64,000 nt of DNA from a virus (taxonomy: Duplodnaviria; Heunggongvirae; Uroviricota; Caudoviricetes). The DNA lies in the IMG/VR virus record IMGVR_UViG_2684623127_000007. One strand, 5' to 3'. A program made the position numbers. Positions 45,901 to 48,900 of the stretch are shown piece by piece; position 1 is the first letter of the stretch, and the number at the start of each line of letters is the position of its first letter.

Positions 45901-48900
45901 ATTTAACATTTCACTGTCCGGTGTCTTTCCTGTAATAAAAAGCCCGCAAAAGAGAGTCAGGGCAGATAAGTGTGGTGTGGTGCGTTGTACTGGATTCGAA
46001 CCAGTGACCGATTGCTTAGAAGGCAATTGCTCTGTCCGGCTGAGCTAACAACGCAGAATACCGATAATGGACCGCCACCGGGGACTCCGAATCTCGCACA
46101 GGGTGACGTTCTTTCCTGATGAGCTAGTGGCGGTTGGTGGCCCTTGCTGGATTTGAACCAGCGACCTGGCGATTATGAGTCGCTCGCTCTCACCGCTGAG
46201 CTAAAGGGCCGATTGCTGAATAATAACGACGCATGATTAACTCCGCAATCTCATCCGTTACGAATGATTAAATCCTGTACTTCCCGCACCGTCTGCTCAA
46301 AACGTTCAGTCTCCAGTTCAACGCCAGTTGCACGACGTCCCAGCGCCATCGCTGCTTTCACTGTCGACCCCGACCCCATGAAGAAATCTGCAACCAGGTC
46401 TCCCGGACGACTGCTTGCGCTGATTATCTGCTGCAACATTTCTGCCGGTTTTTCGCACGGATGTTTCCCTGGATAGTACTGCACCGGTTTATACGTCCAC
46501 ACATCGGTGTACGGCACCTGCACCGTCACACCGAAATACCGCCGCAGATGCTTATATTCACTCTGCAGCTCCGCATACTGTCGGTTCAGAGAGGCATACG
46601 TATCCACCAGCTGGTGGTGGGGCTTTCCAGTTCACCCCGCTGATGCTTCTCTTCTGCCACCCGGGCAAACAGTGCCTGTAATTTCAGATAATCGCTTTCG
46701 TTCGGCAGCTGCCACTGACCGGCACTGAACCAGTGCGACACCATGTTTTTCTTTCCTGTGGCATCTGCAATCTGTTTTGCCGTTATCCCCAGGACAGCGC
46801 GCGCATCACGAAAGTAAGCAATCAGCGGGGCCATCACATGCTGTTTCAGTGTCCTACCCTTCGCCTCATACCCGGCATCTTTCGGACGATACGGCCCCTG
46901 ATAATGCTCTGCGAACAGAATGCGCTCTGTGGCGGGGAAATACGCCCGCAGGCTTTCCTTGTTGCACCCGTTCCAGCGTCCGGACGGCTTTGCCCAGATG
47001 ATATGGTTCAGCACGTTAAACCGCTCACGCATCATGATTTCGGTGTCAGATGCCAGACGATGGCCACAGAACAGGTAAAGACTTCCGGCAGGTTTCAGCA
47101 CCCGCCAGAACTGCGCAAGACACTGGTCCAGCCACTTCAGGTAATCTTCATCACCCGCCCACTGGTTATCCCAGCCCTCGGGTTTCACTTTGAAGTACGG
47201 CGGGTCCGTGACTATCAGGTCAACAGAATTTTCGGGTAACGACCGCATAAATTCCAGGCAGTCGGCGTTGATTAACTCACAACTGGATATTTTTACAGTA
47301 TTAAGCATGGATCATTAAGCCTGTCTCTGATAGGCTCATTCTGCTTTTGCGCAAAGCAGTGGGCCTGAGGTTTGCTTGTGAACCCAACGCATGAGCAGAT
47401 GGCTGGTGGGTGCCCCTTACACCCACCAGCCGCCCATTTACCACAAATAAAAAAGCCTTCAGGACTGAAGGCGTCTGTAACAACCAAACTGATAGTCTGC
47501 CAGACCCGCCATAACCAGCTGGGTCAGTATTAACTGGCAGCGTTCGCGTGAAAGGTAAGTATTCTGCGCAATCTCCCCGACTGTCGCCGGGTCGGTAACG
47601 CTTAATTCATTAAACACCACTCTGGCGGTTTCTGTCATATCCTGCTGTTTCAGCATGTCTTTTTCCCTTTTCCGGTTAACGTGACACACCAATAACTCTT
47701 GTCGAAAAAGCCAGCAACCTGAAAGAACGGTATTAATAACCACCAGCGAATTTATTGCGCTGCTGTATATTACGGACACAAAAAAACCACCTTCCGGTGG
47801 CTTCCTTGTGCGAAAAAACTTGCATTTCGCCTCGCGATACAGCTTTGCGAAGCTTACAGGAATTCAAGCTGTTTCTGCGTAAAAAAGCAAGCTTTTTTTA
47901 TCGAAATGAATCGTGCATAGGTACATAAAGCATGTGTTCAGCCACGGCTAACCAACCTGCAATACGTTTCTCACATGTGCTGAAACACCATTCCGGGTGA
48001 GTACGATTTAAACATTCTGCCATTTTTCTCTTACTCATTCCCCGTCCTTCGTACCTTTGCCGGAGAATATTGATTAGCCCGGGATATTCCCCAAGCACCT
48101 CACTGATAACGCGATCAATAATCAACGCCTCTGTGTCTGTACAATGTGACAACCAGCTCTTCTGCTTCCCTCTGGTCATATCCCGAAAAAATGCCTCAAG
48201 TTCCGGTTTTTCCAGCCCGGATTTCTTCATGCTGCGTAAAACCTCATTAACTGCTGTTTTCGTCAGCTTTTTCGAAACCAGTAACCGGTTAAACATATTT
48301 CCGGATTTACCCCCACCGATATACGACCACCGCCCCCACATCCGTAATTTCCCCTGGATCCAGACTGCTTCCAGCGTGTTCAGGCGTAAATGTTCGCCGC
48401 TTTTGCCTGTAATTTCCGGATATATCATATTTACGCTCACTCACTCTCAATTTTGTAAATCTTCACACCCAGCCGTCCACCAGATACTGGCTGACCACGT
48501 ACAATATTGATTTCATCAAACTGCTCATCGTCCATTAACACTCCCGCATGCGTCAGCGCATCCAGCGGTGCTTTCAGAATATTGTCCAGGTCACGACGAC
48601 GCTTATCCGGTGGCTCTGCAATAATTTTTATTGCCAGCCGTCCGGACAGGCTTAATTTCAGTCGCTGCTGGCGAACAATAAGCACCACTGCCCGGCGATA
48701 ACGCTCCCCGGCTTTTGATACAAAATATGTGCTGCCACGGCGTCGCCAGTAAGTGTTCACCGTCGGCGGGTAAGGTAAAACCAAATCTATGAGCATCAGT
48801 CACCTCTTTTACCCGAGCACGCCAGTCGCAAAGGCGTGATCAAGAAAACGAAAAATTAAATCAACCTGGGAACCATGCTTTTCTTCGAACGCCAGCGGAT

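Follow-up and report, generated by a model that had tools for sequence, protein, structure and literature searches.

The prophage-borne DNA methyltransferase M.EcoGII of Escherichia coli O104:H4 C227-11 is a 349-amino-acid (aa) enzyme of the beta class with the motif order DPPY-TRD-FxGxG, which is identical to its paralogue M.EcoGI at 333/349 positions, methylates adenine whatever the sequence context, is silent in the normally growing lysogen, is deleterious when expressed constitutively and has a close relative reported in phage 1720a-02 (Murray et al. 2018, PMC5778455). Here, we analyse a gene of this family in a stretch of 64,000 nucleotides (IMG/VR virus record IMGVR_UViG_2684623127_000007), hereafter the window, to which all coordinates refer unless another stretch is named. 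The window is a lambdoid prophage adjoining the trp operon, with integrase, Q-like, lysis, head and tail genes around the methylase gene; the element has been named the Sp9_like prophage at ompW, some strains having a second, tandem prophage after it (Miyata et al., PMC9997748). The methylase gene is split between two frames, and we consider it highly probable that it is a pseudogene of the M.EcoGI/M.EcoGII family in which one A was lost once and the loss was inherited vertically within a sub-lineage of clade 8 of E. coli O157:H7.

The initial annotation had described a methylase with a TDPPY motif encoded in two frames of 240 aa and 118 aa, and this is confirmed by the open reading frames (ORFs), by tblastn and by Pfam. 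The split gene comprises the following parts:

47308..46586, minus strand: N-terminal ORF of the methyltransferase, 240 aa, starting with MLNTVKISS and carrying DLIVTDPPYF
46607..46251, minus strand: C-terminal mechanical ORF of the methyltransferase, 118 aa, with a GTG start
46586..47308, minus strand: N-terminal pseudogene fragment with 228 native residues including DPPY (motif IV) at residues 35-38, followed by 12 out-of-frame residues SPTTSWWIRMPL and a stop
46251..46625, minus strand: C-terminal pseudogene part with native residues 229-352 including motif I FxGxG (DFFMGSGST), in the other frame

Both ORFs overlap on the minus strand, the GTG start of the C-terminal ORF falling within the end of the N-terminal ORF. 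The 240-aa ORF ends with HQRGELESPTTSWWIRMPL (in a longer rendering EEKHQRGELESPTTSWWIRMPL) and a stop; the 118-aa ORF begins with (M)DTYASLNRQ, i.e. (M)DTYASLNRQYAELQ, carries DFFMGSGST and ends with DLIIRNG and a stop, and a Shine-Dalgarno-like sequence is absent from the 25 nucleotides (nt) upstream of its GTG at 46607 (AACTGGAAAGCCCCACCACCAGCTG). The intact orthologue, WP_000935548.1 (352 aa, annotated 'DNA-methyltransferase'), matched the window in tblastn in two pieces, frame -1 covering residues 1-230 (47308-46619) and frame -3 covering residues 229-352 (46625-46254), the N- and C-terminal fragments being 99.6% and 100% identical to it, and the same search returned neither a second, frame-restoring indel in the gene nor a second methyltransferase copy in the window. 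In Pfam, the N-terminal fragment covers positions 1-106 of the profile PF01555 (N6_N4_Mtase; E 3.6e-17, 63.5 bits) and the C-terminal fragment positions 121-220 (E 1e-24, 88.1 bits), the intact orthologue scoring 149.1 bits against a gathering cut-off of 26.7; because the fragments cover complementary parts of PF01555, the two ORFs are one gene in two frames. In the intact frame, TDPPY at residues 34-38 and FFMGSGST near residue 309 follow the beta-class order. The window copy does not carry DPPY and FxGxG in a single polypeptide: the catalytic DPPY half and the S-adenosylmethionine (SAM)-binding FxGxG half lie in different frames, which bears out the first of two readings offered initially, that of an inactivated prophage methylase.

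Two features define the site of the lesion:

46624..46626, minus strand: lesion site, coding AAA versus AAAA in intact orthologues (GAA AAG, Glu-Lys), TTT on the plus strand
46604..46617, no strand: 14-nt perfect palindrome CCACCAGCTGGTGG containing CAGCTG, which begins, on the coding strand, 6 nt 3' of the A run

Comparison with orthologues had been proposed as a check on the split gene, and the alignment of the window with the intact 1059-bp gene of strain SS52 (WP_000935548.1) revealed one missing A as the sole difference (GGAAAAGCCCC in the intact gene, GGAAAGCCCC in the window). The intact gene reads GGT GAA CTG GAA AAG CCC CAC CAC CAG CTG GTG, and the window reads GAA AGC CCC ACC ACC AGC TGG TGG at the lesion, the deleted A belonging to the AAAA run at codons Glu227-Lys228. 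This run adjoins the 5' side of GCCCCACCACC, the tract near which the initial annotation had placed the frameshift; a single frameshift is thus real, but by the orthologue alignment it is positioned just 5' of that tract and not within it. The C4 run and the CCACCACC stretch begin one base 3' of the lesion and are the same in both alleles, as is the palindrome CCACCAGCTGGTGG, which is part of the named tract. The longest homopolymer in the whole gene measures 5 nt, and longer simple repeats are not present. As a separate observation, GAA AAG just before the palindrome in the intact gene resembles an A-AAG single-tRNA slip site.

We surveyed the AAA allele (A3) and the AAAA allele (A4) in complete genomes using an 81-bp query across the site. 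By megablast against complete E. coli genomes, the gene gave a 1058-bp match of 100% as well as hundreds of 1059-bp matches at 99.9%. Complete genomes with the identical A3 allele number 25 and stem from different projects with sources in the USA, UK, New Zealand, Japan, Korea and elsewhere, and a further 327 genomes give matches of 95-99% at the site, as one extra base (A4) gives; A3 and A4 are the only alleles in the genomes whose sequence was read, which cover part of this 95-99% class. WP_000935548.1 is found in the Sp9-like prophage of most O157:H7 genomes. The NCBI pipeline (PGAP) labels the gene 'DNA-methyltransferase, frameshifted' in 7/7 A3 genomes inspected, and in each of the seven non-A3 genomes inspected the product is intact and identical, namely WP_000935548.1. 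The A3 genomes differ mutually at some 40 other sites and by an insertion sequence (IS) insertion within 30 kb of prophage, and A3 is therefore older than their divergence.

A 24.9-kb late-region query that excluded the methylase found 31 genomes with a full-length match of at least 99.6% identity and an intact esterase gene, 21 of them A3 and 10 not; in the remaining four A3 genomes the best late-region match is listed elsewhere in the genome. All of the 16 genomes in which the late-region match is about 30 bp shorter and split in two pieces are A3. In strain 272 the shorter match is caused by a 30-bp in-frame deletion in gene J, a segment present in the window (22658-22686, minus strand). 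We rejected this indel as a nested marker: a 90-bp junction query was split by BLAST, both forms giving 100%, and did not yield a population-wide count. A backbone tree of single-nucleotide polymorphisms (SNPs) from the 50 kb between trpA and puuA was likewise rejected, A3 and A4 strains being separated by 1-2 SNPs per 50 kb, which is too few; prophage haplotypes and the published core-genome phylogeny were used instead. In this backbone, the trpA-trpD segment of TR01 (44979-50000 of the fetched stretch) is 96.8% identical to other O157:H7, with 159 mismatches in 5 kb versus 0-2 SNPs in 50 kb among the others, and appears to have been imported by recombination beside the prophage site.

Clade 8 consists of SG8_30 and a second branch, which split at about 1931 into SG8_31A and SG8_31B, and SG8_32 (including SG8_33) arose from SG8_31B at about 1956 (PMC9997748). 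Cross-tabulating the 35 closed clade 8 genomes of Miyata et al. (PMC9997748) against the A3 list gave the following distribution:

SG8_30: 12 closed genomes, 0 with A3
SG8_31A: 7 closed genomes, 0 with A3
SG8_31B: 5 closed genomes, 4 with A3
SG8_32 and SG8_33: 11 closed genomes, 10 with A3

A3 is thus carried by 14/16 genomes of SG8_31B/32/33 versus 0/19 of SG8_30/31A (Fisher p = 5e-8). Among the A3 genomes is 2017C-4109, the SG8_31B closed genome with a gamma Stx2a phage, and strains of this type branched early (PMC9997748). CEC08123 (SG8_32), which is non-A3, has 20 kb between the trpE start and oppA and no prophage at ompW, which is a deletion and not a reversion. CEC08123 also carries a large chromosomal inversion, with ynfA/tus at 1.62-1.67 Mb and trp-to-oppA at 2.04-2.06 Mb in reversed order. 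An A4 copy inside SG8_31B/32/33 was not found among the closed genomes scored, which did not include 28RC1. These data are most simply read as a single loss of the A at the root of SG8_31B, once this lineage had parted from SG8_31A, followed by decades of inheritance in which no reversion was observed.

The gene order of the prophage runs from the integrase through early genes, paa, hokD, the DUF968 gene, RusA, the Q-like antiterminator and a 65-aa ORF to the methylase and two tRNAs, followed by the esterase, holin/lysozyme, terminase, head and tail genes and then by the effectors nleA, nleH1-2, nleF, espO, nleG and espM1. Upstream of the methylase are:

47898..48440, minus strand: Q-like late antiterminator of 180 aa (PGAP: DUF1133 family protein), matching phrog_753 'anti-termination protein Q-like' with E 3.8e-74, directly upstream
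47459..47656, minus strand: small conserved ORF of 65 aa (PGAP WP_000917750.1, phrog_331, no function assigned), between the Q-like gene and the methylase
47455..47472, minus strand: intrinsic-terminator-like hairpin with a T run on the coding strand (GCCTTCAGTCCTGAAGGC, then TTTTTTATTT), lying between the Q-like gene and the methylase; candidate (tR'-like) for the terminator of the late operon

Gene context and the published work on M.EcoGII suggest a model according to which the intact enzyme would be silent in the lysogen, its gene belonging to a late operon that would be transcribed once Q-type antitermination acts on induction. The enzyme would then methylate adenines in the replicating phage DNA with little or no sequence specificity, and such broad methylation may protect the progeny DNA from restriction in the next host. 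For the window allele we predict that the native frame is lost after residue 228 with a stop 12 codons on, the product keeping DPPY (motif IV) without FxGxG (motif I, SAM-binding), and that no credible start is available to the C-terminal half; this allele is not expected to yield an active enzyme. The A would have been deleted once in the ancestor of SG8_31B (with SG8_32/33), after the split from SG8_31A (~1931), and passed on vertically since.

Several points weigh against this reading or parts of it. That the window product is inactive rests on motif logic, and the non-specific activity demonstrated is that of the O104:H4 enzyme, which is 93% identical to the O157 Sp9-like orthologue; the M.EcoGII reference sequence used for this identity is a machine-read supplement (PMC11551740) with probable reading errors. 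The terminator and the late-operon assignment come from consensus scans and gene order, the hairpin at 47455..47472 being a consensus match in a scan that returned 4 such sites versus 2.9 expected, and a consensus scan of 45900-48600 returned no sigma-70-like promoter. The window is identical to no record, its closest relative being NE122, and in the closed SG8_31B genome 28RC1 the methylase gene was not located and its allele not scored.

Of the other explanations, positive selection for the frameshift fares best and yet appears unlikely. It holds that the frameshift removed a non-specific methylase harmful by leaky expression and thereby helped SG8_31B/32, in line with the deleterious effect of constitutive M.EcoGII expression (PMC5778455) and with an allele that is fixed and retained in a successful lineage. 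Fragmentary copies of the family also recur in phage records: in PHROGs, the two halves of the intact orthologue fall into different families, phrog_6025 matching residues 1-204 (N-terminal half) and phrog_6952 residues 171-349 (C-terminal half), and, judged from these families, split or truncated copies of the methylase must recur in deposited phage genomes, with break points unlike that of the window. However, nearly all other O157:H7 and many E. coli keep intact copies, some several per genome, which speaks for a low cost of intact copies; hitch-hiking or drift equally fixes a single mutation in a clonal lineage. We regard as distinctly improbable the wider proposal that the loss was adaptive for the SG8_31B/32 ancestor and that the family is recurrently knocked out likewise, of which a weaker variant would have an active split enzyme on induction.

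It is very unlikely that the gene is still functional, be it by programmed -1 frameshifting, by transcriptional slippage or as a split enzyme assembled from two halves. The GC-rich palindrome CCACCAGCTGGTGG lies 6 nt 3' of the A run, about where a frameshift stimulator would be expected, beta-class methyltransferases are active as dimers, and the separate PHROGs families for both halves indicate that split copies recur in phage records. Against this, G GAA AGC does not fit the slippery heptamer X XXY YYZ, tRNA-Glu would be unable to re-pair in the -1 frame, and transcriptional slippage would need far more than three As. The C-terminal ORF has a GTG start without a Shine-Dalgarno-like sequence, overlapping the end of the N-terminal ORF, and the catalytic and SAM-binding motifs do not occur together in either half. 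All homologues inspected (the O157 SG8_30/31A copies, the O104:H4 copy and single-gene phage annotations) are single-frame, and the two-frame form is therefore derived and not a conserved design. We accordingly rejected the assignment as a programmed-frameshift gene, with no slippery heptamer at the junction and a two-frame form that is not conserved.

The second reading offered initially, a slippage-prone, phase-variable gene, supposes a methyltransferase toggled ON and OFF within populations by slipped-strand mispairing. Phase-variable methyltransferases are known in other bacteria, and at the lesion a homopolymer is altered by 1 nt, yet our data leave this reading hardly any probability. 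The tract changes from 4 to 3 nt, short of a homopolymer of ~7 nt or multiple repeat units, in a gene whose longest homopolymer has 5 nt, and the genomes read show two alleles alone. ON and OFF states are not interspersed: A3 is limited to one monophyletic lineage over decades (14/16 versus 0/19) with no A4 found inside it, and the sole resolved non-A3 genome of this lineage has no prophage and is not a revertant. In addition, expression of the gene in the lysogen is not expected, and switching would then have no target phenotype there.

The last explanation, that the true frame is a continuous one of 1059 bp from which an A was miscalled, has equally little probability, although single-base homopolymer indels are the commonest long-read error and 2017C-4109, the first 100% match, is a PacBio HGAP assembly, since the same allele occurs in 25 independent complete genomes from several countries, among them, where the method was found, PacBio-only and Illumina-polished nanopore assemblies (at least one Japanese assembly of the clade 8 study being nanopore (Flye) polished with MiSeq reads per its supplement), tracks the core-genome phylogeny and is replaced by A4 in sister-lineage assemblies of the same projects and platforms, which excludes the assembly error named initially as what would overturn the frameshift.

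Returning to the pseudogene and its surroundings, the genes immediately downstream of the methylase are:

46135..46210, minus strand: tRNA with anticodon CAT, immediately downstream of the methylase, Met by ARAGORN and tRNA-Ile by PGAP in matching records
45978..46054, minus strand: tRNA-Arg with anticodon TCT, downstream of the methylase
43601..45511, minus strand: DUF6645/SASA-type esterase, a late gene, intact in the window

For tRNAs with the anticodon CAT, ambiguity between Met and Ile is usual and lysidine modification is possible. The esterase gene has a ~1-kb deletion in SS52 and TR01, both SG8_30-type prophages with AAAA, and TW14359, EC4115 and RM6067W show an esterase-region gap matching that of SS52/TR01, with 95% of the 24.9-kb query covered in three pieces; with this deletion, the prophage may offer another lineage marker. 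Where a second, tandem prophage is present at ompW, it carries an intact 1059-bp paralogue followed by tRNA-Met, as in ATCC 43889 (35457-36515 of the fetched stretch) and TR01 (13082-14140 of the fetched stretch), the paralogues being WP_001303214.1 and WP_000483509.1; some A3 strains still have an intact family member nearby.

Further features of the window are:

50421-51733: IS1203/IS629-type insertion of 1313 bp between hokD and the DUF968 gene, transposase match at 50463-51676
16233-17558: nleA, type III secretion effector cluster
13495-14406: nleH1-2, type III secretion effector cluster
12860-13429: nleF, type III secretion effector cluster
8964-9242: espO, type III secretion effector cluster
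7606-8253: nleG, type III secretion effector cluster
6832-7422: espM1, type III secretion effector cluster
2521-3807, plus strand: tyrosine integrase of 428 aa, reading toward the junction at ~3847
802-1629: SPFH/band-7-like protein, in 1-3846 with small ORFs

Among the genomes compared, the IS1203-type insertion is shared only by NE122, which also has three SNPs in common with the window and gives the best match to its late region (99.9%); the insertion places the window with NE122-like strains rather than with 2017C-4109. The effector cluster (6832-17558) at the far prophage end is 99.6-100% identical to that of 2017C-4109, in which the corresponding stretch additionally has IS66, IS256 and IS630 remnants. 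Positions 1-3846 of the window have no match in 2017C-4109 or any fetched locus and are probably the start of a second element, in tandem at ompW.

As a summary, our data describe ordinary gene decay and not a genetic switch, and leave the current understanding unchanged. Both the characterisation of the gene family and the PGAP label 'frameshifted' for this copy predate our analysis, which adds only the link between the allele and one sub-lineage of clade 8. As a marker of the O157:H7 clade 8 lineage SG8_31B/32/33, the AAA allele is clean and stable, and it is absent from SG8_30, which has been linked to higher Stx2 production (PMC9997748); we found no mention of the allele in PMC9997748. Natural A3/A4 strain pairs could show whether the methylase has any role when the Sp9-like prophage is induced, e.g. 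in guarding packaged DNA against restriction.

Compared with known systems, the window gene shares with phasevarions a methyltransferase frame broken at a short repeat. The Type III mod phasevarions of Haemophilus, Neisseria and Helicobacter have long simple-sequence repeats and many tract lengths within a strain, whereas the tract of the window has 3-4 nt and two alleles, and its OFF allele is clonally inherited. The closest solved structures by phmmer are PDB 8urk/9c3u, M.RsrI (1eg2), CcrM (6pbd) and M.MboIIA (1g60), with E values from 1e-24 to 1e-14. These beta-class enzymes belong to the same Pfam family and share two conserved blocks, the phmmer matches covering residues 8-115 and 269-343, but the similarity is distant, the central region is not alignable and those enzymes are sequence-specific.

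Much closer are the M.EcoGI/M.EcoGII enzymes, of which the window gene, as judged from its sequence, is a broken member, a pseudogene rather than a working one. WP_000935548.1 is identical to M.EcoGII (sequence in the supplement of PMC11551740) at 325/350 positions (93%), and this identity suggests non-specific activity for the O157 Sp9-like orthologue as well. The 349-aa copy of O104:H4 2011C-3493 is identical to the same sequence at 330/350 positions (94%); O104:H4 has three copies, and M.EcoGII is one of these three. Phage 1720a-02 is 93.5% identical to the window gene at the nucleotide level and is among its best phage matches together with many Stx2-converting phages. The repaired window protein thus resembles M.EcoGII in identity (~93% over 350 aa), in length (352 versus 349 aa) and in the beta-class order DPPY-TRD-FxGxG, and also in its place in a lambdoid prophage after an antiterminator gene and a 198-bp ORF and before tRNA genes, an arrangement seen for the O104:H4 copy scoring 94% to M.EcoGII. 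It differs by the 25 substitutions or gaps that separate the O157 Sp9-like orthologue from the printed sequence and in that the window copy is frameshifted after residue 228 and predicted to be inactive. The nearest relative of all is the gene for WP_000935548.1 in SS52, TW14359-type strains, E32511 and Rafaela_II, which has the same locus, the same prophage and the same DNA bar one base, its AAAA in place of AAA giving a single open frame.

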